From Candidatus Dormibacteria bacterium (GTDB lineage: Bacteria > Chloroflexota > Dormibacteria > Aeolococcales > Bog-877): a stretch of 64,000 nucleotides of DNA. The DNA lies in contig JBJKSO010000105.1 in assembly GCA_046703825.1 (NCBI GenBank), forward strand, positions 320 to 64,319, written 5' to 3'. Positions 7,393 to 32,037 of the stretch are shown here, one piece after another. Both the position numbers and the translations under genes were made by a program. The notes beneath the pieces are model-generated. The model worked only from the letters and a program-made list of their open reading frames with translations, was not told where the DNA came from and searched no databases. Each line of letters starts with the position of its first letter. The first letter of the stretch is position 1.

Positions 7393-7396
7393 TTGG

Positions 7397-9809: not shown

Positions 9810-9832
9810 GCGTTTCGTCCTCCAGAAGCTGC

Positions 9833-9847: not shown

Positions 9848-10024
9848 GACACGGTCGGCGTCAAGTGGCTGCGGCTAGTGAAGTCGGAGGCTCCAAACTG
9901 ATGTTCGATCAACGCGTATGCCCTCAGTCATTGGACCCGCGGGATCAGCTGAGAGCGACGCGTGCCTCTCTAGGCGTAGCCTGGCGTCCGCCGTGCTTGC
10001 ACCTGGAGATGATGGCGGTGAGCC

Positions 10025-10780: not shown

Positions 10781-10851
10781 AAAGCATGCGATCCGTCCGT
10801 TGAATGGTCTGCGGTCTCTAATCTGCCGAACCTCACATTGAGAAGGGTGCC

Positions 10852-11133
10852 GTGCGACACAAGAGGTGGTTGGCGGTGGAACCGACCGATTCGCTAGCTC
10901 ACCATGGGGAGCTAGTTCGGCAACTCCGTCACTGGGAGGCCTGGAGACGCTGGCTGGGCGCGAGACTCAAAGCCGCGCAGACCGCCGGATACCCTCGTGC
11001 TAGCGCCACGCGTATTTTTGAGGCCGTTGCAGCACGTGGCGTCATGGCGCCCCGGGACGCGGTGGCAGATCTGGCGGTGAGGAGGATGGCGCCGATTGAG
11101 AGTACAAGCTGGCCGCGCGCACCGTTGCCGTAG
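10852..11133 (+). CDS. hypothetical protein (weak)
   Basis: ORF track, 93 aa. GTG start, poor SD, no recognisable motif. Confidence 0.2.
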   Translation: MRHKRWLAVEPTDSLAHHGELVRQLRHWEAWRRWLGARLKAAQTAGYPRASATRIFEAVAARGVMAPRDAVADLAVRRMAPIESTSWPRAPLP

Positions 11134-11228
11134 TGGCACCGTCGCTCACGCACCTGAAAGCGATCGTTCTGCACTGCGACCCGCCCACTCCGATTTCGGC
11201 CGGATCAAGGCTCTCAGGTGAGATGGAA

Positions 11229-11301
11229 AGCGGGAGACGGGTCTCGAACCCGCGACCTTCTGCTTGGGAAGCAGACGCTCTACCAACTGAGCTACTCCCG
11301 C
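11229..11301 (-). tRNA. tRNA-Gly (anticodon CCC)
   Basis: The minus strand reads GCGGGAGTAGCTCAGTTGGTAGAGCGTCTGCTTCCCAAGCAGAAGGTCGCGGGTTCGAGACCCGTCTCCCGCT. It folds by hand into a 73-nt cloverleaf with anticodon loop TTCCCAA. CCA is not encoded. Confidence 0.95.
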
Positions 11302-12401: not shown

Positions 12402-14915
12402 CTACTGAGCGGCCGCGGCCTGCTGGATCGCGGTCGAGACCTCCCCCATCCAGCGCTCCAGGCTCGCCTCGGCGGCGAGCGGATCCGGCCCGGATGCGAT
12501 GACCCGGTAGCGGGGGCGGTCGGCGTCGGGCAGCAGCAGCACCCACCCTTGCTCCAAGCTCAGCTTCAACCCATCGGTGAGATCGACGCGGTCGTTGTGA
12601 TGCGCCTCCACCATCCGTCGCATCACCTCGCCCTTTACGTCCCAGGCGCAGGGTAGCGAGCGCTCGAGGTGCGCCCCCACCGGGAGCTGATCCACCAGGT
12701 GGGACACCGTGTCCCCGCTCTCGCACACCAACTCCAGGGTGGCCAGCAGGCTGTAGATGGCATCGTAGGCGGCCAGGTGCGCCGGCCAGACCAGCCCGTA
12801 GTCCTCGTCGGCGCCCAGCAGCGCCTGGGTCCGCGAGGCCGCGCGCAGGACCGACGTCCCCGCTGCCCGGGCGGAGACCATCCGCCCCCCGGCGCTGTTG
12901 ACCGCCTGCTCCAGCCGCCAGGGAGCGGAGACCGGAGCCACCACAGACCCCGGCCCCCGCATCTTTAGCGCCAGGGTCGCCAGCAGGCTGGTGGCCTGAT
13001 CATGAAGAAGCACCCGGCCCTTATCGTCGATCAAGGTGACGCGCTGCCCGGAGGGGTCGATCCGCACGCCCAGCAGGGCGCCGACGGTGCGGGTGATGGC
13101 GGAGGCCTGCTCAAGATCTTCGTCGCGGTTGCGCGAGGAGAAGAGCAAGGCGGAGTCCTCCTCCATTCCCGGGCGCAGGCTGATCACCTCCACCCGAGCC
13201 TGCTGGAGCAGCTGGCGCAGAACGGAGGTGGCGCTGCTGTAACCAAAGTCGACCAGCACGGTGGGCCGGGCGGAACGGATCGCGGCCACGTCGATCTGGT
13301 TGAGTACATGCTGCTCGTAGGCGGCGACCACACCGCTCGGGTAGTCGATCCCCGCGATCTCGCGGGTGACCACGCGCCGGAAGTCCTCGCGGAAGAAGGT
13401 GTTCTCCAGGCGGCGCTCTTGGCGGCGGTCGAGGGCCATCCCCCGATCGTCCAGGAGGAGGACGTCGGCCGAGCGAACATCCAGGGGGGAAGAGAGGATA
13501 TGGGCCGCTCCCACCGCTGACGACTCCCGCGCGAAGTAGCAAGTCACCGGCACCGGCAGCTCGGTCAGGTCGAGCACGTGGGCACCGGCGGAGAGCATCC
13601 CCGAGATGATCGCCCGCTTGATCATGCGGGATCCCTGGCTCCAGTCGCGGCAGATGGCCAGGTCCACCCCGCGCGGCTGGTTGGCGGCCCACGCCGCCCC
13701 CAGGCGGGCACACCACTCGGGCGTCAGCTCCACGTTGATCAGCCCGGTGATGCCGGCCGAACCGAACAGGCTGGAGCGCCAGGCGCCGGCCCAGATCACC
13801 GACTCGTGCACCACCGAACCGGGTTCGATCTCCTTCCCGGGCCAGATGCGCACGCCCTGCTCCACCACGGTTCCGGCGCCGATGGTGCAGTCGTCGCCGA
13901 TCACGGTGCCGTCGTCCAGCAGCACCTCGGGGCGGATGGTGGCGCCACCGCACACCACCGCCTGGCGCAGCCGCGAGCGCTCACCGACGTAGGCCTGCGT
14001 CCAGATCACGCTGCTGCTGACCTTGGCGCCGTCGTCGACGACCACGAAGCTGTCCAGCACCACCGGCCCATTGAGGAAGGCCTCCGCCCCCACCACCGCG
14101 TCCCGGCCCACGTAGGCCGGACCCTCGATCCGGGCGTTGCCGGCCACCTCCGCCCCCTCGACCACCCACTGCGACGGCCCCACCTGCCGCCCGGCGATCT
14201 CGCACTGCACGCGGCCCTCGAGCGCATCCCAGTTGGCCTGCAGGTAGCTGGCGACGCTGCCGATGTCGCACCAGTAGCCGCGGCCCTGGACCGCCCAGAG
14301 CTCGTCCTGGCTCGCCAGCATCTGGGGGAAGACGTCCTGAGACCAATCGCAGGGGCGGTCGTCCGGGATGTAGTCCAGCACCTCCGGGTCGATCACGTAG
14401 ATGCCGGTGTTGGCGAGGTCCGAGAAGACCTCTCCCCAGGACGGCTTCTCCAAGAAGCGCTGCACCCGTCCAGCTCCCTCGACGATCACCACCCCGTACT
14501 CCAGCGGGTTGCCCACCCGTGAGAGCACCACGGTGGCGCGGGCGCCGTGGTCGTGGTGGAAGGCGGTGACGTGGCTCAGGTCGATGTCGGTGAGCGCGTC
14601 GCCGCTGATCACCAGAAACGTGGAGTCGAGCAGGCTGGCGGCGTTCTTGACGCTCCCGGCGGTGCCCAGCGGCCGGTCCTCGACCGCGTACTCCAGGCTC
14701 ATCCCCAGCTCGGCGCCGTCGCCGAAGTAGTTGCGGATGCTGGCGCCCAGGTACTGCAGGGTGATCACCACCTCCGTGATCCCGTGGCGGCGGAGAAGGC
14801 GCAGCACGTGCTCCAGGCAGGGGCGCCCGACCACCGGCACCAGCGGCTTGGGCCGCCGGCTGGTGAGTGGGCGCAGGCGGCTGCCCTCGCCTCCCGCCAT
14901 CACCACCGCCTTCAA
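12402..14915 (-). CDS. fused sugar-1-phosphate nucleotidylyltransferase (ManC-like) / phosphohexomutase (ManB-like)
   Basis: ORF track, 837 aa. The N-terminus [25 protein letters not shown] is followed by a hexapeptide-repeat region and then a phosphomutase-like C-terminal half. TTG start. Confidence 0.85.
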
Positions 14916-14955
14916 CTCAGCACCGCCTCACCGAGCCCCTGCCGCCCCGCCGCGA

Positions 14956-17679: not shown

Positions 17680-18498
17680 TCAGTCGGGCCGGCGGGCCGG
17701 GGTCGGACCGGGCTCGCGCCCGGGGAAGTGCTCCAGCGGCCCGTGGCCCGCACCCAGACCCGGCGCCCGGGCCAGGCACCGAAGCTCGTACGCCTTCGCG
17801 GCCCGCACCGCATCCAGGGGAGCGTCGCCTCGGGCCAGATTCGCGGTTATGGCCGCGGAGAAGGTGCACCCGGTCCCGTGGGTGTGGCGCGAATCGATCC
17901 TCTCCGCCTCGAGTTGGGTGACGGAGCCGTCATGGACCACGACATCCACCGGAGGTCCCGGGGCGTGCCCGCCCTTGACCACCACCCAGGGGACCCCGAG
18001 TTCAGTGAGGGCGTGGGCCGCGCTCTGGGCCTCGGCGCCGTCGGTGACGGGCAAACCGGTCAGCGCGGACGCCTCCGGCCAGTTGGGAGTGAGGACGGTG
18101 GCGAGCGGGATCAGCCGCTCGCGCATCAGCCGCACCGCGTCCGCCTGGAGGAGGGTGGCCCCACTCTTGGCGACCATCACCGGGTCGACCACCAGCGGCC
18201 CCCAGTCGCGCCGCGACAGCTGGGCGACGACCTCCCGGATTAGGTCTGCCGAGTAGAGCATGCCGGTCTTGACCGCCGCCGGACGGAGGTCTTGGTCGAG
18301 AGCCTCGATCTGCGCGGCCACGAATTCGGTAGGCAGCGGCTCGACCGCGGTGACGGCGACGGTGTTCTGGGCCGTCAGCGCCACCAGCACGCTCACCCCA
18401 TAGGCACCGTTGGCGGCAAAGGTCTTGAGGTCGGCCTGGATGCCGGCCCCGCCACCACTGTCGCTGGTGGCGACGGTGCACGCGATCGGGCGGGTCAT
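17680..18498 (-). CDS. thiD: hydroxymethylpyrimidine/phosphomethylpyrimidine kinase
   Basis: The internal ATG at 18498 gives MTRPIACTVATSDSGGGAGIQADLKTF...THGTGCTFSAAI. ATGA overlap with the upstream permease stop. The longer 557-aa ORF-track extension is rejected. Confidence 0.9.
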   Translation of the reverse strand: MTRPIACTVATSDSGGGAGIQADLKTFAANGAYGVSVLVALTAQNTVAVTAVEPLPTEFVAAQIEALDQDLRPAAVKTGMLYSADLIREVVAQLSRRDWGPLVVDPVMVAKSGATLLQADAVRLMRERLIPLATVLTPNWPEASALTGLPVTDGAEAQSAAHALTELGVPWVVVKGGHAPGPPVDVVVHDGSVTQLEAERIDSRHTHGTGCTFSAAITANLARGDAPLDAVRAAKAYELRCLARAPGLGAGHGPLEHFPGREPGPTPARRPD

Positions 18499-19958
18499 TG
18501 GGCCGCTCCCGGCTCGACCGCAGCGGTGAGCCGGTGCTCGCGAGCGGTCAGCAGCACGTAAGCCACCGCCGCCACCAGAGTCCCGACCAGGCTGCTGATA
18601 TCGGCCGGCTGTCCTTGAAAGAGGTGCTGCGCCAGTGGTGAGACGAACCCCCACTCGCCGGGTGGAGGCGGCTCGTTGAAGAACAGGATGGTCGCCGCGG
18701 TCCCGATCAGGAAGGCGGCGAGCACCGGCCACCTGACCCCACCGCGAAACCAGTAGCCACTGCGGGTGGTCAGGCGATGGGGCTCCATCCGCGGCCGGCG
18801 CCAGACCGAGTCCAAGACCACCACCGTCGCCCAGGCGGGGAACCAGACGTAGGTGAGAGTCAAAAAGTTGACGTAGTTCCCTTGGAAGCCGCTTCCGGCG
18901 AACAGCACCAGCGCCGCGATCAGACCTCCCAGGAGGCCGACTGCGGTGGCCGCCATCCAGCGTCGCAGACGGATCCCGATGGCCAAGGCGCACAGAGCTG
19001 AGGAGTAGACGTTCAGGTAGTTGGAGCTGAGTTCGGCCAGGATGATGAACGCCGCGAAGCAGAACGCGAACCACAGCGGCACCGAAGAGACGATCAGGTT
19101 GGGTAGCAGCTTGGCGGGGTCCGCCGTCTGCAGCGCCGCTCCCAGCAGGCCGCAGCCGACCAGGCTGAGCGTGCTGCCGCCGGCGCTGGTGAGGGCCACG
19201 CGGCGATCGGAGGAGTTCACCGGCAGGTATCGGGAGTAGTCGGCCGCGTAGGTCACCCACGAGACGATCAGCGCGAAGGTGAGGGTGAACCCCAGCGCGG
19301 CCGCGGCGAGGTGAGGACCGAACGGAAGCCGGCTCTGCAGTCCGAGGTTCCACCGGTGGAAGGTAAAGACGGCCAAGAGTCCGCAGACCAGCAGGAACGC
19401 GGGCACCTGTATGTGCTGGAAGACCGAGATGGTGCGGTGGCCGTAGACCGCCACCAGAAACGAGATGGCCGTGATGGCGACCAGCAGCAGCGCCTCGATC
19501 GAGGTCGGGGTTCCGCTGAGTATGGGCAGAGCCTTAACCGTGGTGACGGCGATGGCGCAGTCATAGGCGAACCAGCCGATGGCTATGGTCATGGTGAGGA
19601 AGCCACCGATGTAGGCACCGCGCCACCCGAAGACCATCCGCGACTGCACGATCTGGGGCGCACCGCTGCGCACGCCGGTGATGCTGAGCAGCCCGAGGAA
19701 GGTGCTGCCGGCGGCGGCGCCGGCGATCAGGACGAGGGCGGCATCCCAGAAACCCAGCCCGGCCGCGGAGACCAAGAGCGCCCCGGCGAAGAGCGAGAAG
19801 AAGTCGGCCAAAGCGCCCGACCAGATGAAGAAGAGTTCGCGAGGACGTCCGTGGCGTCGCTCTGCCGGAACCGGCTCCAAGCCCCGGAGCTCGACGCGCA
19901 GGAACTCGTCGTCATCCTCGGGGATCGCACCGTCTGCAACCGGAACCGCTGACTCCAA
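18495..19958 (-). CDS. NCS1-family (cytosine/purine/thiamine-precursor) permease
   Basis: ORF track, 487 aa, 12-TM pattern. TTG start with GAGGGAG 6 nt upstream. It follows a TPP riboswitch and precedes thiD. Confidence 0.85.
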   Translation of the reverse strand: MESAVPVADGAIPEDDDEFLRVELRGLEPVPAERRHGRPRELFFIWSGALADFFSLFAGALLVSAAGLGFWDAALVLIAGAAAGSTFLGLLSITGVRSGAPQIVQSRMVFGWRGAYIGGFLTMTIAIGWFAYDCAIAVTTVKALPILSGTPTSIEALLLVAITAISFLVAVYGHRTISVFQHIQVPAFLLVCGLLAVFTFHRWNLGLQSRLPFGPHLAAAALGFTLTFALIVSWVTYAADYSRYLPVNSSDRRVALTSAGGSTLSLVGCGLLGAALQTADPAKLLPNLIVSSVPLWFAFCFAAFIILAELSSNYLNVYSSALCALAIGIRLRRWMAATAVGLLGGLIAALVLFAGSGFQGNYVNFLTLTYVWFPAWATVVVLDSVWRRPRMEPHRLTTRSGYWFRGGVRWPVLAAFLIGTAATILFFNEPPPPGEWGFVSPLAQHLFQGQPADISSLVGTLVAAVAYVLLTAREHRLTAAVEPGAAQ

Positions 19959-19995
19959 TCTGCTCTCCCTCAGCCATGTGCCGCTGGAGCTCCGG

Positions 19996-20090
19996 CAGGC
20001 TGAGGCTTCCCGACGCTGGTACTAACCAGATCCGGTCATCAGGGTTGGCGTTGCCGCCTCTCAGCGCCTGCCGGCGCACCCCTAGCTGGA
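19996..20090 (-). promoter_or_regulatory. TPP (THI-box) riboswitch
   Basis: The minus-strand RNA reads CUAGGGGUGCGCCGGCAGGCGCUGAGAGGCGGCAACGCCAACCCUGAUGACCGGAUCUGGUUAGUACCAGCGUCGGGAAGCCUCAG. It carries the conserved GGGGUGC, GCUGAGA, ACCCUGA, AUCUGG...ACCAGCG and GGGAA blocks. Confidence 0.85.
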
Positions 20091-20219
20091 GCTGACGCTC
20101 CGTGGCGAGTATAGGGCTATCCCCCTGCGGCCGGCCTCGGGTGAGCCTCGGTGAGTCGATGAGCGCAGCCGACCCCGGCACCGACCAGGCGGTGCCGGGG
20201 GGCTCTCGGGGCGATCAGG

Positions 20220-21350
20220 TTAGGGTCGATTCCCGCGGTGAAGGCGTCGCTCCACGGCCACGCCGCCCAGCAGCACCGTCCCGAGCACCACCATCAGCAG
20301 GCCCCAGACCACCTGCACGCCGGCCCCGGTGGCGGGCAGCTGGGTGGTGGAGGCAGCCAGGACGCCGCCCGCCGGGGTCGCCATCGTGTACGCAGCGGCA
20401 CCGCCGTCGGACACCACGTCCTTGCCGCCGCAGAACATGTTCACGGTCACGTTGGTCAGCTGCGAAGAGCCGGCCGGGTTGTTGCCGACGGTGAAGTTGA
20501 ATGTCTTGGTCGTGACGGCGGGCGTGGTCGTGGTGAAGTCGAAGTAGTAGCAGCTCACCGATGTGGAGGAACTCTGGCAGCAGGGGGCCGGGCCAGTCGG
20601 AGCACCGCTGGTCGGGCACGTCGCCATGCCCGCTGGCGCCTGGAACGTCTGGCTACCACTCCAGGTCAGCGTGATCTCGCCCTCACTGGAAGGGACGGTC
20701 GTGGTCTGGGTGGTGGTGACGCTGAGGGTGGTTGAGCCACCGTTGGCAAGTCCTGTGGCGGGCTGGTAACTGGCGGTCACGTTCGGCTGAACCACGTTGA
20801 GGGTGAGTGTCTGGGGATCGAGCTGTCCTTGCGGGGACTGCTCGGGCGATGAGTAGGCGGCAGCCACCGTTATCTGATACGGGCTCCCGGTCACCGCCGT
20901 ATAGACATTCGGACTTGACTGCGTGTCCACCGGGACTACTACAAAGTCGTGAGGGATCGTGAACGTGCTCTGGTTGCTGGGCCAGTTGTCGTAGTAACAG
21001 GTGATGGAGGTTGGGCTAGTGAGAGCTGAAGGGCAAGAAGCGTTGGGATCGTTGCCCGTGTAGTAAATGCGAGCGTTGGAGCTGTTCGACGTGAGAGTGA
21101 GCATTCCGTACGGGCCCGCGAGATCCCCCGTGGCGGCTTGGACCTCCACGGCGATCTTTACCACGGTCCCGGGATATGCGGTGAAGCTGGCCGCCGGGGT
21201 CGTGGTCCCGGCGTAGAGGCCGGTGCCAGGGGCGGCCACGACCGTCGGGGTGGAGCTGGTGGTGTCTGCCGAAGCCGTCATCAGGCCGACGATGCCGAAG
21301 GTAAAGGCGCCCATGGTGGCCACCACCGGCAGGACCAATCGCCGCATCAC
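20220..21350 (-). CDS. LPXTG-type (LPATG) cell-wall-anchored surface protein, Thr/Ser-rich
   Basis: ORF track, 376 aa. Signal peptide MMRRLVLPVVATMGAFTFGIVGLMTASA. The C-terminus reads LPATG, then a 24-residue mainly hydrophobic stretch, then RRLHRGNRP. GGAGGGG SD. Confidence 0.85.
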   Translation of the reverse strand: MMRRLVLPVVATMGAFTFGIVGLMTASADTTSSTPTVVAAPGTGLYAGTTTPAASFTAYPGTVVKIAVEVQAATGDLAGPYGMLTLTSNSSNARIYYTGNDPNASCPSALTSPTSITCYYDNWPSNQSTFTIPHDFVVVPVDTQSSPNVYTAVTGSPYQITVAAAYSSPEQSPQGQLDPQTLTLNVVQPNVTASYQPATGLANGGSTTLSVTTTQTTTVPSSEGEITLTWSGSQTFQAPAGMATCPTSGAPTGPAPCCQSSSTSVSCYYFDFTTTTPAVTTKTFNFTVGNNPAGSSQLTNVTVNMFCGGKDVVSDGGAAAYTMATPAGGVLAASTTQLPATGAGVQVVWGLLMVVLGTVLLGGVAVERRLHRGNRP

Positions 21351-21672: not shown

Positions 21673-23079
21673 TCAGCTGCCGGTTGCGGCACCGATCGGT
21701 TGCGGGCCTGCCACGGACTCCTTGCTCACGCTCGCGCCCAGCTCTCGCCGCTCAGCCAGCACCGCGATCACGGCGACCAGCGCCAGCAGAGGGATCTGGG
21801 CCAGGTACTCTTCAAGGCTTCGCCAGTTCAGCCAGAACGCCGACAGCGTCAAAACCGCAGCAGCCACCCTCCATCGGGGCCGCGCCAGGCCCCAGGTGAA
21901 GACGGCCAGCATGACCAGGGCGGTGAGGGCGAACGTCAGCAGGCGCGGGGGCGGAGGGATGACGTGGGCCAAGACCAGCTCAATCGGCCCGTACCCCAGA
22001 GGGAAGGTTGGCCCCCTCAGCACCCCCCAGACCTGCGCGATCGCATCCGGATAGCGCACGACCCACGGCAATACAGCCACGGCGATCGTGACCGACCCGG
22101 CGACGAGCCGCCGGGAAAACTGGCCCAGGTCGAGGCAGAGCAGGAAGTAGCCGGGCAGGAAGAACCAGGCCAGCTCATTCGAGCCCAGCGCCAGGGCCAG
22201 GCAAACCGCCGAGAGGATCGGTCTTCGGATCCACAGGACACTGAGCGCCATCAGGACGTACGCGAAGGCCTCGGCGTTGCCGTTGGCCGCAAAGTTGAGC
22301 GCCGAGCCGGGAATCGCGTATGTGAGCAGCACCACGCCCACCGCGACCGGCCAGAGAGGTCCTGCCGCCAGGGCAACCGCCACCAGTAGCACCACAATGC
22401 CGCCTAGGACCCAGATGGCTCGGGCTGAGGCGCCCGCGTGGGCCACCGGAATCATCGAGACTGGATCCAGCGGCGGTTTGCCCAGGCGCGAGAAGTAGCC
22501 GTAGTCGGCCCTGTTGCTGGCGGCGGCGTCGATCTGGGCGGGACTGGGGTAGACGCGCACGTCTCGAAAGGGTCCCGCCTTCAGCGGGGTGGCCAGCGCC
22601 GGCGGCAGCGCCATGCTCTTCAAACAGCCGATCTCAGTCACGTGGTAGGGATCTCGGCCGGCGACGATTGCCCGGGCTCCGCAGACTGCCATGGCGTTGG
22701 CATCGTCGATCAGCAACTGGCCGGACGAGATCGGCCGAGAGAGGCCCCACCCCACTCCTACCGCCACGACGAGGGCCAGGAGGGGGCTCACCAGAAGCAG
22801 CCGACCGGGCTTAAGCCGGGTGAGCCACCCGGGCAGGGTGCGGACGCAGCAGAGTGCGACCACCGCGACGAAGGCCAGGAAGGCCACGTATTGGAAGACC
22901 AAGTTGGCGGTGAGGGCCGCCTGACCGGGCACCCGGTCAGCCAACCACAGCCAATTGGCGAACCGCAGCGCCACCAGCGCGACCACCAGAAGCACGAGGC
23001 GGTCCGCGAACGCGCCCTGGGGCGCCCAGGACGGCAGGTACCTAGATCTCGATAACCGATCGACCACCCCGCTGATCAT
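21673..23079 (-). CDS. polytopic membrane protein, GT-C-fold/DUF2029(GT87)-like, paralog 1
   Basis: ATG at 23079 gives 468 aa, matching the 465- and 471-aa paralogs. The shared loop motif is listed under the paralog finding. The ORF-track N-terminal extension to 23433 is rejected. An alternative start at 23133 is possible. Confidence 0.7.
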   Translation of the reverse strand: MISGVVDRLSRSRYLPSWAPQGAFADRLVLLVVALVALRFANWLWLADRVPGQAALTANLVFQYVAFLAFVAVVALCCVRTLPGWLTRLKPGRLLLVSPLLALVVAVGVGWGLSRPISSGQLLIDDANAMAVCGARAIVAGRDPYHVTEIGCLKSMALPPALATPLKAGPFRDVRVYPSPAQIDAAASNRADYGYFSRLGKPPLDPVSMIPVAHAGASARAIWVLGGIVVLLVAVALAAGPLWPVAVGVVLLTYAIPGSALNFAANGNAEAFAYVLMALSVLWIRRPILSAVCLALALGSNELAWFFLPGYFLLCLDLGQFSRRLVAGSVTIAVAVLPWVVRYPDAIAQVWGVLRGPTFPLGYGPIELVLAHVIPPPPRLLTFALTALVMLAVFTWGLARPRWRVAAAVLTLSAFWLNWRSLEEYLAQIPLLALVAVIAVLAERRELGASVSKESVAGPQPIGAATGS

Positions 23080-23154
23080 GTGTGGACCTAGTTTGACCGC
23101 CTCAGCGCCATAGGGTGTGCCGGCACCGCCCATCCTGTTCTCGATAATGGGAAG

Positions 23155-23610
23155 GTGGCAGTCGATCCCCTCGAGTACACCGCAAGGTGGTCGGTGCGCC
23201 AGTACGAACTGGACGTCAACGGTCACGTCAACAACGCTGTCTATCTCAACTACGCGGAGGAGTTGGCGGTTCAGCACGCCGCCCGGAGCGGATTCGGTCC
23301 CGAATGGACCGCGGCGCACGACGGTGCCTGGTTCATCCGGCGCAACGAGATCACTTACTACGCTCCGGCGAGATACGGGGATGAGCTCGAATTGACGGTG
23401 CGGCTGGAGCTGGTCCGCGGAGCGAGAGGCCACCGAAGAACAACGATTCGGCGAGTGGGCGATGGTGCGCTCATTGCGGTTGTCTTCACCGAATGGGTCT
23501 GGACGCGACGCTCAGACGGCAAGCCTGCGCCCGTCCCGCAGGAGCTCGTGGAGCTGGCCGCTAGCGCCGCTCGGGTTGCACGGCAGGCGGCACGGCGTCC
23601 GCCCAACTGA
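23155..23610 (+). CDS. hotdog-fold acyl-CoA thioesterase (YbgC/4HBT type)
   Basis: ORF track, 151 aa. The motif YELDVNGHVNNAVYLNYAEE is typical. Confidence 0.8.
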   Translation: MAVDPLEYTARWSVRQYELDVNGHVNNAVYLNYAEELAVQHAARSGFGPEWTAAHDGAWFIRRNEITYYAPARYGDELELTVRLELVRGARGHRRTTIRRVGDGALIAVVFTEWVWTRRSDGKPAPVPQELVELAASAARVARQAARRPPN

Positions 23611-23978
23611 CCTCCTTACGGATCCGATCCACAGTCGCTCCCTTGGCTGTAGCTCTCACAGATACCGTAAGAAGTCCGCCTGGCTGGAGCTCCAGCAAAC
23701 AGTCAGTCCCCGGAGAAGGCTGCTACTGGTTGGGGGCAGACGGACCGCAGCGACCGGGGCACTACTCTGGTCGCCTCACCATGCCTATCCCGCCAAGGGC
23801 GAGACGCAGCCCAGGCGCGAACGTACACCGTCGGTAGCGCTCACCTCTCGGCGCTGGAGCGCGCCGTGCAATCGCCTCGCTCCCCTGCTTGGAGAACACC
23901 TGTCATACGCTGCGTACCGCAGCCAATTCCCTCCTGGCTTCACGCCCGAATTAGGGTCCGCTTCGAATGCGGCCCCGC

Positions 23979-25804
23979 TCACTTGACCCGCCAATCCTGT
24001 GGGTAGATGTTGAGCATCGGGTCTTGGGGCGCCCAGCCTTTGATGGTGGTCCGGACTGCCGAGACCTGGAGTGGCGGAGTGGGAGGAAACAACGTGGGGA
24101 CCAGTTTCACGATCAGATTCTCATAAGCCTTCAGCTGACTGACGCCAGCACCGCCAGCGTAGGAAGCCTCGATCGCTCTGGTAACTGCGGAGTTCGAGTA
24201 GCCGTCTCCGCTGTCGGCCGCCTTAGGCGCGTAGATATCCTCACCAGTTGGGTAGAAGTCTGGCTCGTATAGGAAGCGTGGTGCGACCAAGAATGCCATC
24301 TGCCATGTGCACTTGGCAGAAATAGCGGTCGTACCGGCGCAGGCGGTCTCCTCTCCCAACAACGTAGACAGCGTGCCCGACTTTAGGGTAATGTGCACAC
24401 CCGCCTTTCCAAACTCGATTGAAGCAGTGCGCTCTCGGTCTGCAGCGCCAACATTCCGCTGGAGTACAAGAATTGGAACTGCAATGGGTCTCCCTCGCCT
24501 ATCCCCGCACCACACTCATTGGCGCCGGCCCCTGGTCTAACGCAGCTCGAGGTTCCGCCAGGAACAACTCTCCAGCCATGCTCTTTAAGCACACTTTCAG
24601 CCCGTTTCGGATTGTAGGAGTAGAGCCCTTTCCGCTCTAAGCTGGACACAAAGTTGCTCGCGGGCTTCAGCGGGACCGGTCCATTGGTGATGGTAGCCAA
24701 GCCGTCGTAGACGGCCTTAATGAGCTGTGGCTGATCTATCAGCATCTGAAGCGCCTGCCGTACGTAGGGCTGGCTCAGGATCGGTCCGCTTTGTGGGTTG
24801 AGGTAGTCCAGATCGATATAGGTGAAGGCCCATCCCCACCATGGAACCACGCTGTAGCCGCGCTTCTTCAATACCCCGGCTTGAGCAGTGTCTTGAGGAG
24901 GGATGTAGCCGTAGTCCACGGCACCGGATCGCAACGCATTAAATTCGGCCGTATCCGAAGTGAACGGCTCCAAGATGAACTTGGAAACGGAGCCACTGAC
25001 CTTCCCGGAATAGGAATGGTTCCGAGCAAAAACGACATAGCCATTCGAATCGTAGGTCTGTAGTCGCCAGGGCCCGTCGACGACGCGCCAGAGTGGGTTC
25101 GTGTCGTACGTAGGCAAGTTCTTGGCTTGTCCAATCAAGTAGTTGTAGACGGCCCGAGCGCCCGAAGGGGTGGCGTCATACGCACCAGGTGCAGTGCCCG
25201 CTTCGCGATCCCACGCCATAGGCATGGGCGTGACCTGGCTCAGCTCGTTGTAGGTGAACCAGTAGGGAGAGAACGAGTGTTCCAAAGTAAACCGGACCGC
25301 ATCTCCGGCCACCATCTTGTAGGCTTTGACGTTGTCTGGGAAGGTGCCGGCTGCGTAGGGTCCGAAGTTAGTCTTCTCTTGTTCCAGCAGATTCATCCAG
25401 AAGATCACGTCACGGGCGTCTACAGTCTCGCCGTTCGACCACTTCCAACCCTTCATCCGCACCGTAACCACCGTGTCGCCGTTCGAGTAGACGGGAGGGT
25501 ACGCTGCGCTCAGTGACGGGTTAAGCACAGGTTTGCCGTCCTTGCCAAACCAGTACAACGGCAGGTACATGAGATATTGAAACTGTTCCTGATTGGTCGA
25601 GTCGAAGTAGGCACCACTCATCATTGGAAAGATGTAATTAGGTGGAGAACCTGGCTGCTCGGCGAATGTGACGCTGCTAGCAGATGTACCCTTGGCTTGA
25701 GCAGGAGCCCCTGGCACAAGGACCACGGCTACCATAGCGACGATCCCAGCGATCGCTAGACCCAACTTGCGTCCGAGGCTGTCCCCGATCGACGCATCCC
25801 CCAT
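23979..25804 (-). pseudogene. family-5 (peptide/nickel-type) ABC solute-binding protein, interrupted by a frameshift
   Basis: ATG at 25804 follows GGGAGGGAGG. Signal peptide with AQA. The frame ends ...ALLQSSLERRVCTLP* at 24383. The natural continuation IEFGKAGVHITLKSG...WRVK runs in another frame to 23979. No permease or ATPase genes are adjacent. Confidence 0.75.
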
Positions 25805-26135
25805 CAACCTCCCTCCCAATGTCGAGTGTCGTCAATCATAGCTGGCGCTTTGGGCGAGCGCCATACACCGAGAGGTGATCCAAGCGTGCCTGAGGCGTCC
25901 CGGGCGGTCAGGGACCGGGCGGCTGCCGGGGCGCGAGGAATAGAACGGGCCCGATGAGCGGGCGGGTGAGTCGAAGTCAACAAATTGGCATATCCGCCTT
26001 GCCGGTTGTCCGTTCGGCGCAGTTACCAGGAAACCCCTTAGGTCGCCAACGGGATGGGGCTTCACAGCCGTGGATCGGGGCCGGTCGGCAGAAGCGGCAG
26101 GCCCACCCCAGGCAGGGCCCGAGTCGCAAGTCACC

Positions 26136-27533
26136 CTAGTCGGACGCCACCGGTAGGGCCACGCGGCTTTTGAAAGGCCGAGCTGGGCTGGGCACGCTGT
26201 CGCGCAAATGCTCCAACCGGTACCACCCGACGAGCGCGGCCGGGGTCAGCCAAAAAACTGGAGAGTAGTAATAGAGGAGTCCTCGCCAGCTGAGTGCAAA
26301 GCAGACGAAGACCGTCGGCACCATGCACCACCTCAGCTGTGGACGCGCCACGGCCAGGGAAGCACAACCGACTATGCCGGCAGTCAGCAACAAGCCGCAT
26401 AACTCGCGAGACGCCGCGGTGTTGGGCAGCAGCGGCCCAAGAGACGCGCCCATGGCAAACTCTGGGAGGCTGATGAAACGCCACAACTCGGCGACCAGGT
26501 GGTGATCCCAGAGCAGCCAGGGCACGGTGCCTGCGGCGACGCCTCCGACAAGCCAGGCCACGCGCTGGGAACGATCCCGCTCACCCAGAAGGATCGCAGC
26601 ATAGACGGGCGCTGCGATCCAGGTGAGGGGGTTCGAACATACAGCAGCGGCGACTGCCAATGAGCTCACTCGGGGACGGTCCAGCAGTCCAAAGCCAACC
26701 GCCAATAGCAGGTAGCTGATGTCCTCGGGATTCCAGCCAAAGGCAACCAACAACCACCACATCGCCAGGCTCTGCCAGAGGACCAGATACAAGCGACCCG
26801 GCACCGGACGTCGCCAAAGCACCAGCATCAGCAAGAGGCAGACTGCGGCGACCCAAACATAAACCAACGTCCATCCGCCGTAGGCCACAGGCACCAGCAA
26901 GAGAGTGGCCTCGGGCGGGTATCCGAAAGCCGGGTACCCGCTGTGACTTCCGGTCGACTCGTCCTGTCGAAGAACCGCCCCCTGTTTTTTGACACTTGGG
27001 AGCCGATTGGATCTCGCAAATACGCCACGATGGATCGGAGTGGCCCCGGGAAGATTGAGATTCAGTCGTCGGAAGCACTGAGGTTCATAGGTCGAGTAGG
27101 GATCGGCGCCGTGCAGCACGTCCTGAGCGGCACACAACATGGTCGCCGGTGGATCGTTCTGTGGTGCCCCAGCGCTGAACTCCAAAATGCTGGCGGCAGA
27201 CACGATGCCCAGAAGAAGCACCGCGATGAGCGCTGCCGACCGGGGTGAGAGCACCGCGGGTACTCGCTCGCCCCAGGGTTTCCGACTGAGACTGTTGGCC
27301 GTGAGCGCTACGCAGGGTACGGCCAGCAAGGGGCGAGCCCACAGTACGAGACCGAAGTGATTGACCAGCAGCGTGATCGCCATCCAGACGAAGAGGGCGA
27401 AGATGCCCTGAGCCGTTCGGATGGGTAGGGTGTGGGGCTCGAGCCGGTGGCTGGGGCCGGGAGAACGGGGCGTCCTCCTAACCCATCCGGCGAATCGTCG
27501 CGGCCTCCTCCATCTCAACTTCCCACGGTGCAT
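26136..27533 (-). CDS. polytopic membrane protein, GT-C-fold/DUF2029(GT87)-like, paralog 2
   Basis: ORF track, 465 aa. ATG start. It shares the extracytoplasmic loop and downstream motifs with paralogs 1 and 3. Confidence 0.75.
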   Translation of the reverse strand: MHRGKLRWRRPRRFAGWVRRTPRSPGPSHRLEPHTLPIRTAQGIFALFVWMAITLLVNHFGLVLWARPLLAVPCVALTANSLSRKPWGERVPAVLSPRSAALIAVLLLGIVSAASILEFSAGAPQNDPPATMLCAAQDVLHGADPYSTYEPQCFRRLNLNLPGATPIHRGVFARSNRLPSVKKQGAVLRQDESTGSHSGYPAFGYPPEATLLLVPVAYGGWTLVYVWVAAVCLLLMLVLWRRPVPGRLYLVLWQSLAMWWLLVAFGWNPEDISYLLLAVGFGLLDRPRVSSLAVAAAVCSNPLTWIAAPVYAAILLGERDRSQRVAWLVGGVAAGTVPWLLWDHHLVAELWRFISLPEFAMGASLGPLLPNTAASRELCGLLLTAGIVGCASLAVARPQLRWCMVPTVFVCFALSWRGLLYYYSPVFWLTPAALVGWYRLEHLRDSVPSPARPFKSRVALPVASD

Positions 27534-27737
27534 CTAGCCGTCGAGGCTAGCCAATAGCAGCTCAGCAATCGGTTCGGAGCCGGTCACGACGTTGTCAGCG
27601 AGTTGACGTTTGTGTAACAGGTCGATCGGCACCCCAGAGTACGAGCGCCTTTTGCGAAATAGTCGGCTGGCAGTGACAGTCGGTGCGCGGGGCGGAGCCT
27701 CGCCCCTTTCAAGGTCTACGGTCGCGGTGGGGCGGGC

Positions 27738-29153
27738 GTGACGTTTGGCGCGATCGCTCGCACTTCCCGGAACGTGCTGTCGCGCCTTCAACCATGGCAT
27801 CCGCCCAGCGCTTCGGCTGACGCCCTGGGATTGCTCCTGCTGACGGTCATCGCGTGGGATCTGCTGCTGACGTTGGACGCGCACCTCACGGCGGCCACCT
27901 CAGGCTTCTTGCATGTGGTGACCTTCGCGGCCTATCCGCTCCTCGTCGCTCTCTGCATCGTCTGTGTCGCCGATCCACCGTTGACCTTTGTGAGCCGTCT
28001 CCCATTCCGACGAGTCCTCTCGGTGGCCCCACTGGTGGTTTTGATTGGGCTTGCATGCCTCGTGGTCCAGGTGCCATCTGCCGTCAGCAGCTCGAATCGA
28101 ATCCAGGATGATGTGACGCCATCCATACTCTGCGCCGCTCAGGACGTGATGCGCGGGAAAGATCCCTATCTAACGCCGGAGCTCAGTTGCCTCAATCGCC
28201 TACACGTCACGCCCGTGGTGGGAACTCCCCTGATGCGCGGTCCTCTGGCGCACCAGAGAACGTATCCCACACATAGGCGTATCCTGCAAGTGGCCGCGGC
28301 CTCCGAGCACAAAAGCTTTAAGAGTCCGGCATTCCCCGTGTTCGGCTATCCGCCGATGAGCTTTATCTGGATGCTGCCGGTCGCGCTACTGGGACATGGT
28401 GCCTGGGTGGCCTGGACGCTGCTCGGAGGCGCCATTTGGCTGGCGGCCGTGGCCAGGGGCTCACGCGCTTTGTGGCCGGCGGCGGTGCTGCTGATGATCT
28501 TGCAGTTCGGTGCAGGGTCGGTGCTGGCCGCGGCAACCCAGGGTGATGGGGAGTTCTTTGGTTTCGCGTGCGCCAGCCTGGCGATCTTGTTCATGGACCG
28601 CGCCCGCACGTCATCAGTGCTGATGGCTCTGGCCGTGCTCACCAACCCGTTGCTGCTGTTGGTCGCGGCTGGCTACGGGGCAATGGCCAGGCACTTTGGC
28701 GGGGCGTCGAGGCGGCTCGCTGTCTTCTTGGCCACATGCCTTCTCATCGGGCTCCCGTGGATCGTCGTGGAACGCAATGCCCTAGCGTCGATGGTGGGCC
28801 TGGTCACCCAGCCCACCTTCGCCTTCGGGTTGGGCCTGGTGCAGGCGTTCGGCAGCTCGCCCGACCCCACTTGGGTGAAGCCCCTGCTCGACAGCCTCGT
28901 TGTTGCAGCGATGCTGGCGGTGCTCACCCTCAGCTGGAGGTCGGCCCGATGGTCAGCTCTGGCCGTTGTGCTGGCACCAGCGCTCATGTGGTTGAGCTGG
29001 AAGAGCGATGCCAACTACCTGGCCCAGGTCTTCCCCTTGGCGGTAGCGGCGACAGTCGCCGTGTACCGGCTGCGCGATAGCACCACCTCGCCGGCCAATG
29101 AGCCGGCTCCGGCGCGGCCGGGAGCGGGCCTCGAAGGCTTGGCAGCCACCTGA
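27738..29153 (+). CDS. polytopic membrane protein, GT-C-fold/DUF2029(GT87)-like, paralog 3
   Basis: ORF track, 471 aa. GTG start. Divergent from paralog 2 across 204 bp. Confidence 0.75.
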   Translation: MTFGAIARTSRNVLSRLQPWHPPSASADALGLLLLTVIAWDLLLTLDAHLTAATSGFLHVVTFAAYPLLVALCIVCVADPPLTFVSRLPFRRVLSVAPLVVLIGLACLVVQVPSAVSSSNRIQDDVTPSILCAAQDVMRGKDPYLTPELSCLNRLHVTPVVGTPLMRGPLAHQRTYPTHRRILQVAAASEHKSFKSPAFPVFGYPPMSFIWMLPVALLGHGAWVAWTLLGGAIWLAAVARGSRALWPAAVLLMILQFGAGSVLAAATQGDGEFFGFACASLAILFMDRARTSSVLMALAVLTNPLLLLVAAGYGAMARHFGGASRRLAVFLATCLLIGLPWIVVERNALASMVGLVTQPTFAFGLGLVQAFGSSPDPTWVKPLLDSLVVAAMLAVLTLSWRSARWSALAVVLAPALMWLSWKSDANYLAQVFPLAVAATVAVYRLRDSTTSPANEPAPARPGAGLEGLAAT

Positions 29154-29196: not shown

Positions 29197-32037
29197 CTAG
29201 ACCGCTAGCGGGGCCGAGTTGATCGCGCTGGCTTCTGTGCCGGTGACTTCGCCGGTGGCCGCGTCGGTGGCGTTCTGAGCCCCTTCCGACAGGAGGAGCA
29301 GCTCCATCTCCATCGGGTGCAGGGGCTCTGCGAAGAAGAACCCCTGGAGTCGGGACTCGGAGCTCAGGCTTTCGATGATGGCCACCTCGGCCTCGGTCTC
29401 CACGCCCTCAGCCACCACCTCCATCGAGAGCGCGCGGCCCAAGTCGACCACGCTGCGCACCACGGCCGCGCCCGCCTGGCTCTTCGACATGCCCGAGATG
29501 AAGGCCCGATCGATCTTGATCTGGTCGACCGGCAGCCCCTGCACTTGCGCCAGCGACGACTGGCCGGTGCCGAAGTCGTCGATCGAGATCTTGACCCCCA
29601 ACTTGCGCAGCGCCACCAACCGCGCCCTCACCTTCTCGATGTTGCTGATGATCATGCTCTCGGTCACCTCCAGCACCAGCTGTGAAGGCGGGACCCCGAA
29701 CTCACTCAGGGCATCCTCGACATCCTGCTTGAGCCCGTCGAGAAGCTGGAAGGCTGAGACGTTCACCGAGATGGCGAAGTCGGCGGGCAGCACGCCCCGC
29801 GAACGCCAGTCGCTGAGTTGCCGGCAGGCCTCGCGCAGGACCCAGCGCCCGATCTCGACAATCTGACCGGTGGACTCGGCCACCGGGATGAAGTCCTGGG
29901 GCGAGATGGGGCCACGCTCGGGGTCATCCCAGCGCAGCAGCGCTTCGGCTCCCTGGATGCGGTGGCGCACCGCGCTCAGCAGGGGCTGATAGGCGAGGCG
30001 GAACTCGCCGTTGCGCAGCGCGTGGCGCAGCCCCATCTCCAGCCGCAGGCGCTCGACCGCCTGCTCGTGAAGCTCCTTGCGGAAGACGACGTACCGGTTT
30101 TTTCCCTCGCGCTTGGCGGCGTAGAGGGCGATGTCGGCGTCGCGCAGCAGTACGGCTGGGTCGCTCTCGCGCGCGGCCGGGATGACGATCCCCAGGCTGG
30201 CGCTGACGGTCACCTCGGCGCGGTCGGGAAGTGAGAGAGGCGTCGAGAGCGCGCCCAGGATGCGCTCAGCGACCATCCCGGCGCCGGCGGCGCCGGCCAC
30301 GTCGTCGACCAGGATCGCGAACTCGTCTCCTCCCAGACGGGCGAAGGTGTCGGTGGGCCGGAGCGCGTCTTCCACCCGCTGGGCCACCTGGAGCAGGGTT
30401 GCGTCGCCGGCGCCATGGCCGAGACTGTCGTTGATGTCCTTGAAGTCGTCCAGGTCGAGTGAGAGGAGTGCGACCTGGTGACCCTTGCGGCGCCGGCCGC
30501 GCAGGGCCTGCAGGATCCGGTCGGTGAGCAGCACCCGGTTGGCGAGTCCGGTCAGTGGGTCGTGCAGGGCCTGGTGGCGCAGCTGCTCCTCCAGCTGCTT
30601 GCGCTCGGTGACGTCGTGCGCGGTCAGCACCACCGCCCGCACGTCGGGGTCGTCGACGAGGTTGCTGGCCAGCACCTCCAGGTGGCGCCAGCTGCCGTCC
30701 CGGTCCTTGAGACGGCATTCCACCTTGCGGCTGGACCACGGGGCGTCGATGGCACGCCTGACCGATTCCTCGAAATCGGCCACGTCGTCGGGATGCATCA
30801 CCGGCGCCAGGTCGAGCCGCTCACCCTCCCTGAGGCCATCGCCCAAGAAGGGCTCGACCGAGGGGCTGCAGTAGGTGACCGACTCGTCTTTGTCCAGGGC
30901 CAAGATCAGATCCGACGAATTGAGCACCAGCGACCGGAAGCGGGCCTCCCTCCGCGCCAGGCTCTCGGCCAGCGTCACCCGCAGCAGGGCCAAGGAGCAC
31001 TCGTCCGCCAGCACCCGGAAGGCGCCCAGCAGGTCGTCGGAGCACGGCTGCCCGGTGCTGATCGCCAGGACCCCGAACGACTCGCGCTCCACCGCCAGCT
31101 GCAGGAGCTGCAGGTGCTGGCCCGCTCCGTCGGGTAGGAGCGAGGACGCCACCCGGACGGTCAAGTCCTGGTCCTCATTGAGCGGGGAGCCCTCCACCAG
31201 CGCCTTGAGCACCCCCGGCTGCAGGTCCCGCTCCGCCAGGGTGCGCCGGCGCACCAGATCGACTCCCAGCGGCGAGGGGGCGAAGACCAGCAGGCCGGCG
31301 CCATGGGGAACTCCGAGCGCGACGGCGACGGCTCCGCCGCTGGGGGCCGCGACCGCCTGCACCGCCCGGCGCACCGTCCGGTAAACAGCTTCCGCGCTCT
31401 CGGCGGCCAGCAGGTCGGTGCTGGACAGCCGCAGCATGCGTTCCCGCAGCATTGCTTCCCGGTGGTTGTCGATGGTGTGGCGCAAGATCTGCGCCGCCAC
31501 CACTATCACCACCACCGCCACCGCACCGGGGAGCAGGTGCTGCAGCTCGGGGCCACCCGAGGCGCCGACGTCCTCCAGAAGGCTCGCGGCGGTGGTACCG
31601 CCGACCAATCCCCCCGCCAAAGCAGCGGCGATCCAGCGGCCACCGTAGAAGGTGCGGAAGCAAAGGCCAGCGTAGAGGACCGCCAGGGCGTCCGCGGGCG
31701 TGGGCGCCCCCAGCGACACCAGCACCATCGCCACCAGCGAGAGGAGGTCGCCCCACCAGTGGAACTCGTCCCGCCAGTAGCCGCGGCTCCACCAGAGGGT
31801 CAGCCAGATCACGCCTGCCAGCGCCGCCTCGCGCAAGGGGGTGGGGCGGCCGGATCCCAGCAGGACCAACGGCACACCCAGCATGAGGTCGACCAGGGTG
31901 GCGATGAGCAGGATGTGCTGGACCTTGGCCTGAAGGGTCTGCCCCGGTCGCAGCCAGGTCCTTACCGGGTCAACCCCTCCCACCACACCGTCCCGCACAG
32001 GCCCAACCTCGTGAAGCCGCTGGTGAGGGGCCGACAC
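29197..32037 (-). CDS. membrane-bound sensory GGDEF/EAL (c-di-GMP) protein
   Basis: ORF track, 946 aa. N-terminal TM block, then a PAS-like region (VMHPDDV). GGDEF motifs read HDPLTGLANR...RLGGDEFAIL. EAL motifs read EALLRW, EVTES, DDFGTGQSSL and KIDRAF. Confidence 0.9.
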   Translation of the reverse strand: MSAPHQRLHEVGPVRDGVVGGVDPVRTWLRPGQTLQAKVQHILLIATLVDLMLGVPLVLLGSGRPTPLREAALAGVIWLTLWWSRGYWRDEFHWWGDLLSLVAMVLVSLGAPTPADALAVLYAGLCFRTFYGGRWIAAALAGGLVGGTTAASLLEDVGASGGPELQHLLPGAVAVVVIVVAAQILRHTIDNHREAMLRERMLRLSSTDLLAAESAEAVYRTVRRAVQAVAAPSGGAVAVALGVPHGAGLLVFAPSPLGVDLVRRRTLAERDLQPGVLKALVEGSPLNEDQDLTVRVASSLLPDGAGQHLQLLQLAVERESFGVLAISTGQPCSDDLLGAFRVLADECSLALLRVTLAESLARREARFRSLVLNSSDLILALDKDESVTYCSPSVEPFLGDGLREGERLDLAPVMHPDDVADFEESVRRAIDAPWSSRKVECRLKDRDGSWRHLEVLASNLVDDPDVRAVVLTAHDVTERKQLEEQLRHQALHDPLTGLANRVLLTDRILQALRGRRRKGHQVALLSLDLDDFKDINDSLGHGAGDATLLQVAQRVEDALRPTDTFARLGGDEFAILVDDVAGAAGAGMVAERILGALSTPLSLPDRAEVTVSASLGIVIPAARESDPAVLLRDADIALYAAKREGKNRYVVFRKELHEQAVERLRLEMGLRHALRNGEFRLAYQPLLSAVRHRIQGAEALLRWDDPERGPISPQDFIPVAESTGQIVEIGRWVLREACRQLSDWRSRGVLPADFAISVNVSAFQLLDGLKQDVEDALSEFGVPPSQLVLEVTESMIISNIEKVRARLVALRKLGVKISIDDFGTGQSSLAQVQGLPVDQIKIDRAFISGMSKSQAGAAVVRSVVDLGRALSMEVVAEGVETEAEVAIIESLSSESRLQGFFFAEPLHPMEMELLLLSEGAQNATDAATGEVTGTEASAINSAPLAV

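Follow-up and report, generated by a model that had tools for sequence, protein, structure and literature searches.

Three paralogous membrane proteins of a Candidatus Dormibacteria contig are candidate outer-face glycosyltransferases of an unnamed, GT87-related GT-C family

Introduction

The closest described relatives of the proteins considered here are the GT87 enzymes (Pfam PF09594, formerly DUF2029), mannosyltransferases that depend on polyprenyl-phosphate-mannose. They have the GT-C glycosyltransferase fold, and mycobacterial PimE (structures 9DM5 and 9DM7), an Ac1PIM4 alpha-1,2-mannosyltransferase, provides the reference for individual residues. PimE shares a seven-helix GT-C module with ALG6, ArnT, and PglB. 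Its first interfacial helix has the catalytic base, D58, at the tip, and K195, W319, and H322 hold the phosphate of its polyprenyl-phosphate product; the mutants D58A, K195A, and W319A are inactive (PMC12041525). Here, we analyze a stretch of 64,000 nucleotides from a Candidatus Dormibacteria bacterium (assembly GCA_046703825.1, contig JBJKSO010000105.1, positions 320 to 64,319; hereafter the window), in which three genes, P1, P2, and P3, encode polytopic membrane proteins that none of the curated protein families recognizes at its cutoff. Dormibacterota are widespread soil bacteria without a cultured representative. We propose, with a probability of about 0.6, that P1, P2, and P3 are paralogs which diverged long ago within a small, unnamed GT87-related GT-C family, and that they would act as transferases of lipid-linked sugars at the outer face of the membrane, each at a different step.

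Results

Three paralogs with a common loop signature

P1 (21673-23079, minus strand, 468 amino acids), P2 (26136-27533, minus strand, 465 amino acids), and P3 (27738-29153, plus strand, 471 amino acids) are true paralogs, as the original prediction, drawn from the DNA of the window, had recognized. BLASTP relates P1 to P3 at E 1e-56 (34% identity), P2 to P3 at E 3e-32 (31%), and P1 to P2 at E 3e-20 (28%). The open frame upstream of P1 reaches 23433, and alignment with the N-termini of homologs backs the 468-residue start at 23079; for P2, one gene caller working on an identical contig chose a start 50 codons downstream, which would give 415 residues. The loop signature that had been noticed in all three proteins is conserved throughout the family. 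In P3 numbering it consists of the blocks D125...C132...G140-x-D-P143-Y144...C151...T163-P, F-G-Y204-P-P206...P214-V-A, and G-D-G-E272 / D-R-x-R / N303-P-L, and our alignment places all three of them in P1, P2, P3, and every close homolog.

P3, the protein that we modeled, belongs to the most widespread of the three subclades described below. Its predicted first extracytoplasmic loop, delimited by topology, the structural model, and the alignment with GT87, comprises residues 118-218 (28089..28391, plus strand) and contains the G-x-D-P-Y and T-P motifs, an insert of ~30 residues relative to GT87, and F-G-Y-P-P. The key codons of P3, all on the plus strand, are those of D125, the candidate catalytic base (28110-28112), C132 (28131-28133), C151 (28188-28190), N303 (28644..28646), which sits in a turn between the short helices 289-300 and 306-320, and W421-K422 (28998..29003) in the last extracytoplasmic turn (W-R/K/H-S...Y427). 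Alignment and topology predict the corresponding loops, with the same motifs, at residues ~114-220 of P1 (22420..22740, minus strand) and ~118-221 of P2 (26871..27182, minus strand), and the equivalent residues are D126, C133/C152, and N301 in P1 and D127, C134/C153, and N301 in P2. Third-position GC content is 0.72-0.80 in the three paralog genes against 0.85-0.92 in neighboring genes. A 65-nucleotide inverted match with 71% complementarity links the P2 loop (27097-27161) to the P3 loop (28104-28168), and we considered a mobile-element origin for it and rejected it, the repeat being formed by the homologous loop-coding blocks of the divergent P2 and P3; a repeat search around the cluster for a mobile-element signature returned paralogous coding blocks only.

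A chain of profiles leads to GT87

The similarity to GT87 is supported indirectly, mainly through the wider family. The Pfam GT87 model matches P1 with 18 bits (E 0.0025), below its gathering cutoff of 25 bits, and has no match in P2 or P3 at E<=1; PMT and PMT_2 gave no match in P1-P3 at E<=1, no MIR-type or other peptide-binding domain was found, and neither Pfam nor NCBIfam yielded an ArnT/PMT_2 signal for the three proteins. An NCBIfam scan of P1, P2, and P3 returned nothing. Among 85 full-length family members, 30 match Pfam GT87 at E<=0.01, with a best E of 1.5e-11, and 14 match ALG3 weakly.

We then compared profiles of the core clade to which P1-P3 belong (33 sequences in these comparisons; 25 core rows and 60 distant rows, 85 in all, in the column counts given below), of 60 more distant members, and of a reference set of 17 bona fide GT87 proteins, all of which clear the GT87 cutoff. 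Core and distant members align with hhalign at a probability of 100% (E 3e-45), and the distant members align with GT87 at 94.3% (E 9.6e-8) from the Asp block through the Lys block; the direct comparison of core and GT87 reaches 78% (E 1.8e-5). These alignments pair D125-x6-C-A-A-x3-x-x-G-x-D-P-Y with the D55 block of GT87, D-F-S-x-x-Y-x-A-A-x-L-x-x-x-G-...-L-Y; F-G-Y-P-P with P-F-x-x-P-P; Q-G-D-G-E with G-Q-x-D-G; and the N303-P turn with the K-P-H turn, so that the N303 column corresponds to K211 of GT87. The N-terminal part of the core-GT87 alignment appears under relaxed settings only, and at normal settings by way of the distant group; relaxed settings also place the W421 block opposite the GT87 block S-P-H-L-L-x-H-D. 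The resemblance of the acidic residue and G-x-DPY to GT87, on which the original prediction had relied, is thereby borne out, since this residue and the G-x-(D/N)-P-Y block line up with the first-loop motif of GT87, and the ~30-residue insert and Cys pair do depart from that family, as had also been said.

The predicted fold and topology agree with a GT-C enzyme

An AlphaFold model of P3 built on the 85-sequence alignment (predicted local distance difference test score, pLDDT, 92.3; predicted template modeling score, pTM, 0.91) contains 12 membrane-length helices plus short interfacial ones. Strict-threshold hydropathy gives 6-9 segments, and both results agree with the polytopic nature claimed for the proteins. 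This model replaced an earlier one made from 10 sequences (pLDDT 80), which had the same GT-C matches at weaker scores. Searched against the PDB with Foldseek, it retrieved GT-C proteins for all matches with a query template modeling (TM) score of at least 0.23, which speaks for GT-C in the question, raised at the outset, of a GT-C or a transporter fold. ArnT had the best E (0.013, probability 1.0), PIG-U a probability of 1.0 with TM-scores of 0.40/0.44, and PimE a probability of 0.8 with 19-22% identity and TM-scores of 0.35-0.45 (target TM 0.43-0.45); EmbB, AglB, yeast STT3, AftA, DPY19, PglB, and ALG3 were further GT-C matches, and Pmt4 followed at rank 23 (probability 0.35). Non-GT-C folds, including channels, transporters, and receptors, stayed at TM-scores of ~0.1, with probabilities of at most 0.07 for the transporters. 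The model thus supports a GT-C fold for the family, and the proposed kinship with GT-C proteins, GT87 being the nearest, gains indirect support from the predicted fold and the profile chain together.

The weakness of the direct scores, 18 bits for GT87 and a Foldseek E no better than 0.013, could also be read to mean that P1-P3 are unrelated to glycosyltransferases, have a transporter or other polytopic fold, and resemble GT-C proteins through an artefact of hydrophobic composition; the only matches of our profiles to PDB sequences, which are low-complexity and helical, would fit such a reading. We consider it highly improbable. The motifs paired by hhalign are polar (D...AA...G..PY, (F/Y)-P-P, G-D-G/Q-x-D-G, and the N/K-P turn), the 30 matches to Pfam GT87 within the family (E<=0.01) extend to E 1.5e-11, and the ClC, GltPh, and ATP-binding cassette (ABC) folds are among those left at TM ~0.1.

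Model helix order and hhalign register place two extra N-terminal helices before canonical GT-C helix 1 and suggest that two C-terminal GT87 helices are missing. Short loops rich in Lys and Arg alternate with loops lacking both, which predicts an N-terminus on the inside. This distribution of positive charge, together with the strict pairing of the two cysteines, predicts that loop 118-218 lies outside, in line with the extracytoplasmic rather than cytoplasmic location expected for a Cys/DPY loop of a GT-C enzyme. In the model, D125 stands at the start of helix 126-138, after a predicted inside-to-outside helix, and C132 and C151 lie on the consecutive short loop helices 126-138 and 148-154.

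Conserved residues mark a putative active site and set the core clade apart

Of the 21 positions conserved in at least 85% of the 85 sequences (start Met aside), 18 fall in three predicted outer-face segments. D125 is invariant (85/85) and, occupying the GT87 catalytic position, is likely to be the catalytic base. Both cysteines occur in 34 of the 85 sequences and a single cysteine in none, with the pair found in 25 of 25 core rows and 9 of 60 distant rows; a disulfide between C132 and C151 is probable and would link the first interfacial helix to the second. Both groups conserve W421 and, at position 422, a basic residue, which are candidate counterparts of the donor-phosphate binders W319/H321-H322 of PimE. 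PimE was reached neither by a single GT87 protein from one of the related contigs (L003, see below) nor by the 17-sequence GT87 profile, and residues were mapped onto it by motif position because no profile reached it by sequence.

The core clade has several hallmarks of its own. It has D-P-Y and Y-P-P where the wider family has N-P-Y and Y-P-A, and it has gained acidic residues at positions 142 and 148 and lost them at 198, 358, and 388. Moreover, the N303 column holds Asn in 21, His in 2, Ser in 1, and Thr in 1 of the 25 core rows versus Lys in 52 and Arg in 8 of the 60 distant rows, and K211, its GT87 equivalent, is invariant in the 17 reference proteins; P1, P2, and P3 all have Asn. From its position, N303 would be equivalent to the phosphate-binding K195 of PimE, and its turn between helices 289-300 and 306-320 fits the short helix 6 and membrane-embedded loops described for that enzyme (PMC12041525). 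Since the Lys-to-Asn exchange is accompanied by the other charged-residue changes, we believe that the handling of donor or acceptor is probably altered relative to ordinary GT87 enzymes, which implies that the specificity of P1-P3 may differ from theirs.

The same exchange raises the question of whether the core clade is catalytic at all. Its members may instead be GT-C-fold proteins with a lipid- or glycolipid-binding, scaffolding, or regulatory role comparable to that of PIG-U, perhaps pairing with one another or with GT87 enzymes. In support of this, the otherwise invariant Lys/Arg is lost in 25 of 25 core rows and PimE K195A is inactive; the non-catalytic PIG-U is among the top two structural matches of both models; P2-like and P3-like genes are neighbors in the window and at a second locus (L002), and family members stand beside true GT87 genes in L003. 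Nevertheless, we regard this explanation as fairly unlikely, because none of the 85 sequences departs from the candidate catalytic Asp, because the conserved positions gather at the outer face, on residues which in PimE-type enzymes line the cavity, with W421 and the basic residue 422 retained, and because many P3-like orthologs are single genes without a partner nearby. Donor-phosphate binding varies widely among GT-C families, and the loss of one Lys is therefore no proof of inactivity.

An old, unnamed family

When P3 served as the query in a word-indexed search of 5.8 billion proteins, only seven others came up, 37-47% identical and all unnamed. In an exhaustive comparison of a family profile with 1.84 billion cluster representatives, 274 matched at E<=1e-3, 37 of them at E<=1e-30. 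Exact-sequence look-up of 10 distant members returned 'hypothetical protein' or no name, and as members are either nameless or so labeled, the family appears undescribed in annotation; it is unnamed in every source searched, in keeping with the claim that it is uncharacterised. A scan of one genome per species gave 12 loci, of which 5 are labeled Dormibacterota, 4 'bacterium', and 3 otherwise, the labels Micrarchaeia, Verrucomicrobiia, and Nanopelagicaceae on family loci probably being binning errors. Among the sequences found, the core clade is almost confined to metagenome-assembled genomes (MAGs) of Candidatus Dormibacterota. As a side observation on these labels, the fumarase of the window is 77-78% identical to proteins of many Candidatus Dormibacterota MAGs, and the contigs of three family loci (L008, L009, and L015) and of three fumarase matches (P0200, P0230, and P0236) are labeled Micrarchaeia, Verrucomicrobiia, Nanopelagicaceae, or Acidoferrales, which look like binning or taxonomy errors.

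In a tree of the family, P1, P2, and P3 fall into three separate deep subclades (P1-like, P2-like, and P3-like), each with members from other contigs. This placement indicates that the triplication is old and not the product of local tandem duplication.

Paralogs and GT87 genes cluster at other loci

Family members occur together elsewhere. In L002, a P2-like gene adjoins a P3-like one; L005, L010, and L016 carry two or three members each, with adjacent paralogs; and in the metagenome contigs L003 and L004 two members are interleaved with three bona fide GT87 genes. In L003, the stop of a 238-residue GT2 gene overlaps the start of one of these GT87 genes. The best NCBIfam matches of the GT2 protein, all below cutoff, are PgfS, AglJ, ArnC, dolichyl-phosphate hexose transferase, and PpgS, which are of the polyprenyl-phosphate sugar synthase class. 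Two unassigned proteins of ~430 residues complete the cluster (4939-16635 in L003, and in L004), the GT2 being present in L003 alone, and next to it are three Flp/Fap pilin genes in tandem. Many of the P3-like orthologs, by contrast, stand alone, embedded in central-metabolism synteny, and a P1-like ortholog (L020-L022) has a different context again. There, a fusion of a luciferase-like oxidoreductase and a UbiA prenyltransferase (660 residues) lies three genes from the P1-like ortholog, which is upstream of it, and is followed by an Rce1-like protease of a family that also occurs in L019, a locus described next.

The immediate neighborhood is not conserved

The neighbors of P1-P3 in the window are as originally described: a Thr/Ser-rich protein ending in LPATG (20220-21350, minus strand), a 4HBT_2 hotdog thioesterase (23155-23610, plus strand), a family-5 solute-binding gene (SBP_bac_5) with one frameshift (23979-25819, minus strand), and a PAS-GGDEF-EAL protein (29197-32037, minus strand). 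P1, P2, and P3 lie in three orientations and in separate transcription units and are therefore not an operon or co-transcribed. A contig from another Dormibacterota assembly (L019; GCA_050734395.1, JBOHUK010000021.1) is syntenic with the window at 17-37 kb and shares a backbone of POR, PNPOx, DUF72, aldo-keto reductase, and GGDEF-EAL genes followed by the thioesterase, a thiamine-precursor permease, ThiD, and a nucleotidyltransferase-mutase fusion. Its P2-like gene (ortholog P0022) stands alone between the GGDEF-EAL and thioesterase genes, and the LPATG gene, P1, and P3 are absent; by this comparison, the two loci have a common backbone and differ in a lineage-specific way by P3, the binding-protein gene, P1, and the LPATG gene. 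Across 87 neighboring open reading frames (ORFs) at 11 other loci, no recurrent glycosylation partner was found, and the genes that do recur there, those for lipoyl synthase, enoyl-CoA hydratase, Fe-S/CCG proteins, and methylmalonyl-CoA mutase, do so through synteny. P1-P3 are not functionally tied to their immediate neighbors, and the idea of one system that includes the LPATG protein, the thioesterase, and the binding protein did not hold, its context being conserved neither in L019 nor through a recurrent partner.

These comparisons bear directly on the proposal that P1-P3 form a dedicated system which glycosylates the neighboring sortase-anchored LPATG protein, or other surface proteins, in a stepwise manner. 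P1 does adjoin the Thr/Ser-rich LPATG gene, and some GT-C families (PMT/GT39, DPY19, and the oligosaccharyltransferases) glycosylate proteins and include several of the weak structural matches. However, a motif search of the window and of 17 other loci (L001-L017) found, besides the case in the window, a single dubious LPXTG-like match in L006; L019 lacks the LPATG gene together with P1 and P3; the three orientations speak against co-transcription; and PMT, PMT_2, MIR-type, and peptide-binding domains were not detected. In addition, the nearest family is GT87, whose characterized members act on glycolipids and lipoglycans (PMC12041525). We therefore regard this explanation as quite improbable. 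Of the stepwise surface-glycan system that had been envisaged, the notion of successive steps can reasonably be inferred, given the age of the three paralogs and the recurrent clusters of paralogs and GT87 genes elsewhere, and the glycosylation of neighboring proteins is left unsupported.

Some features of the neighborhood were noted in their own right. The frameshift of the binding-protein gene lies near 24410-24430, its C-terminal part continuing in ORF 23979-24515; the gene has a GC content of 58% versus ~66% in its flanks and no adjacent ABC partners. The sole other copy found, on a Logan contig (L018), is 100% identical over 2.1 kb spanning the frameshift and for that reason provides no independent check on it, and the frameshift may be a sequencing or assembly error. 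A thiamine pyrophosphate (TPP) riboswitch (Rfam RF00059, 58.9 bits; 19991-20093, minus strand) precedes a permease of the cytosine/purine family (18495-19958, minus strand), and the ORF downstream of the permease is a ThiD-like kinase, assigned through its L019 counterpart with Phos_pyr_kin; the arrangement looks like a thiamine-precursor salvage operon and separates the LPATG gene from the remaining syntenic backbone. Finally, the region 1100-11300 has a lower GC content (57-61%), ends at a tRNA gene (11229-11301, minus strand), and carries catabolic genes for two CoA-transferase subunits, a class-III aminotransferase, an arginase-family enzyme, an amino-acid permease, and a GntR regulator; this block may be an acquired island.

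Possible mannose and glycolipid chemistry elsewhere in the window

Two further regions of the window are of interest here. An 841-residue fusion of a sugar-1-phosphate nucleotidyltransferase and a phosphohexomutase (12405-14927, minus strand), syntenic in L019, has as the best NCBIfam match of its first part a mannose-1-phosphate guanylyltransferase (ManC-like; 281 bits, below cutoff). At 58045-60124 (plus strand), a lipid A-type acyltransferase, whose best NCBIfam match is a phosphatidylinositol mannoside acyltransferase (PatA-like; 88.7 bits against a cutoff of 209), is directly followed by a GT4 gene, an arrangement that resembles actinobacterial patA-pimA, with no adjacent phosphatidylinositol synthase gene. 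The fusion and the PatA-like/GT4 pair lend loose support to mannose and glycolipid chemistry in this organism, and both lie far from the cluster. In the literature searched, we found nothing on envelope glycoconjugates of Dormibacterota.

Discussion

In summary, we propose that P1, P2, and P3 are old paralogs of a small GT87-related GT-C family. The comparisons above show homology and fold and predict the topology; catalysis, donor, and acceptor are inferred. Fold, predicted topology, and the co-clustering with a GT2 gene in L003 are indirect hints at putative polyprenyl-phosphate-sugar transferases. In such a model, each paralog would take a sugar from a polyprenyl-phosphate-linked donor at the outer face of the cytoplasmic membrane and transfer it to an envelope glycolipid, lipoglycan, or polysaccharide, the position or stage differing from one paralog to the next. 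The polypeptide would begin with an N-terminus on the inside, pass through two extra transmembrane helices and GT-C helix 1 into an outer loop of ~100 residues, and end with about nine helices; the first interfacial helix of the outer loop would carry D125, and the loop would also contain the insert and the probable C132-C151 staple.

Several observations weigh against this interpretation. None of the curated Pfam and NCBIfam models reaches its cutoff in P1, P2, or P3, and two of our profiles (A1 and A3) found nothing or low-complexity helical matches among PDB sequences, PimE not being among them. All Foldseek matches are weak, with no E<1e-3 and TM-scores of 0.3-0.45, so that the family is structurally distant from all solved GT-C members, and the non-catalytic PIG-U is one of the best among these matches. 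The core clade has lost a Lys/Arg that is otherwise invariant in its relatives and whose presumed PimE equivalent is required for activity, as shown by the inactive K195A mutant, and no clear compensating basic residue was found, R174 being basic in about half of the core. Furthermore, no polyprenyl-phosphate sugar synthase of the GT2 family is present among the scanned ORFs of the window, and the tree on which the age of the paralogs is judged is a rough neighbor-joining tree without support values.

Comparison with the described systems shows where the family stands. With GT87 it has in common the GT-C fold, an Asp that opens the first outer-loop helix and has an A-A...G...(P/L)-Y block after it, an (F/Y)-P-P block before helix 2, a G-D-G / Q-x-D-G block, the turn, flanked by two short helices, in which GT87 has its phosphate-binding Lys, a Trp and a basic residue in a late outer loop, and genomic co-clustering in L003 and L004, with the GT2 gene in L003. 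It differs from GT87 in that P1-P3 score below the Pfam cutoff, have two N-terminal helices more and apparently lack two C-terminal ones, and that the core clade carries the first-loop insert with its obligate Cys pair and has Asn in place of Lys. Relative to PimE, the set D58/Y62/K195/W319/H321-H322 is incomplete in P1-P3, the Lys being absent, and there is no sequence-level match. PIG-U of the GPI transamidase (8IMX chain U) and PIG-M, the GPI mannosyltransferase I (GT50, 9WNO), are similar in size and match over ~410 columns with probabilities of 0.97-1.0 and TM-scores of 0.39-0.45, but these eukaryotic endoplasmic reticulum proteins are 10-13% identical and give no sequence signal, and PIG-U is non-catalytic whereas the family of P1-P3 keeps its invariant Asp. 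ArnT (GT83, 5F15), the undecaprenyl-phosphate-L-Ara4N:lipid A transferase, has the best Foldseek E and the conserved seven-helix module, but it is 13% identical, has TM-scores of 0.33-0.37, and possesses a soluble periplasmic domain that is absent in P3. Our results argue, with moderate confidence, for a distant and remodeled GT87-related subfamily rather than a new kind of system. A more far-reaching alternative is that the core clade is a functionally new GT-C family, using a donor that it handles in another way than polyprenyl-monophosphate sugars or working as catalytically altered hetero-oligomers of P2-like and P3-like proteins, and that it builds an envelope glycoconjugate specific to Dormibacterota; we consider this unlikely.

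GT87-like paralogs that await characterization are common in related phyla. The present family would not surprise a specialist; it improves annotation and leaves current understanding in place. Its members are nevertheless unnamed candidates for outer-face glycosyltransferases that curated models do not recognize, and they could be the starting point for a new GT-C clan family in Pfam or CAZy. Moreover, the exchange, throughout the clade, of a residue which PimE requires for activity would provide a natural experiment on the binding of lipid-linked donors by GT-C enzymes.

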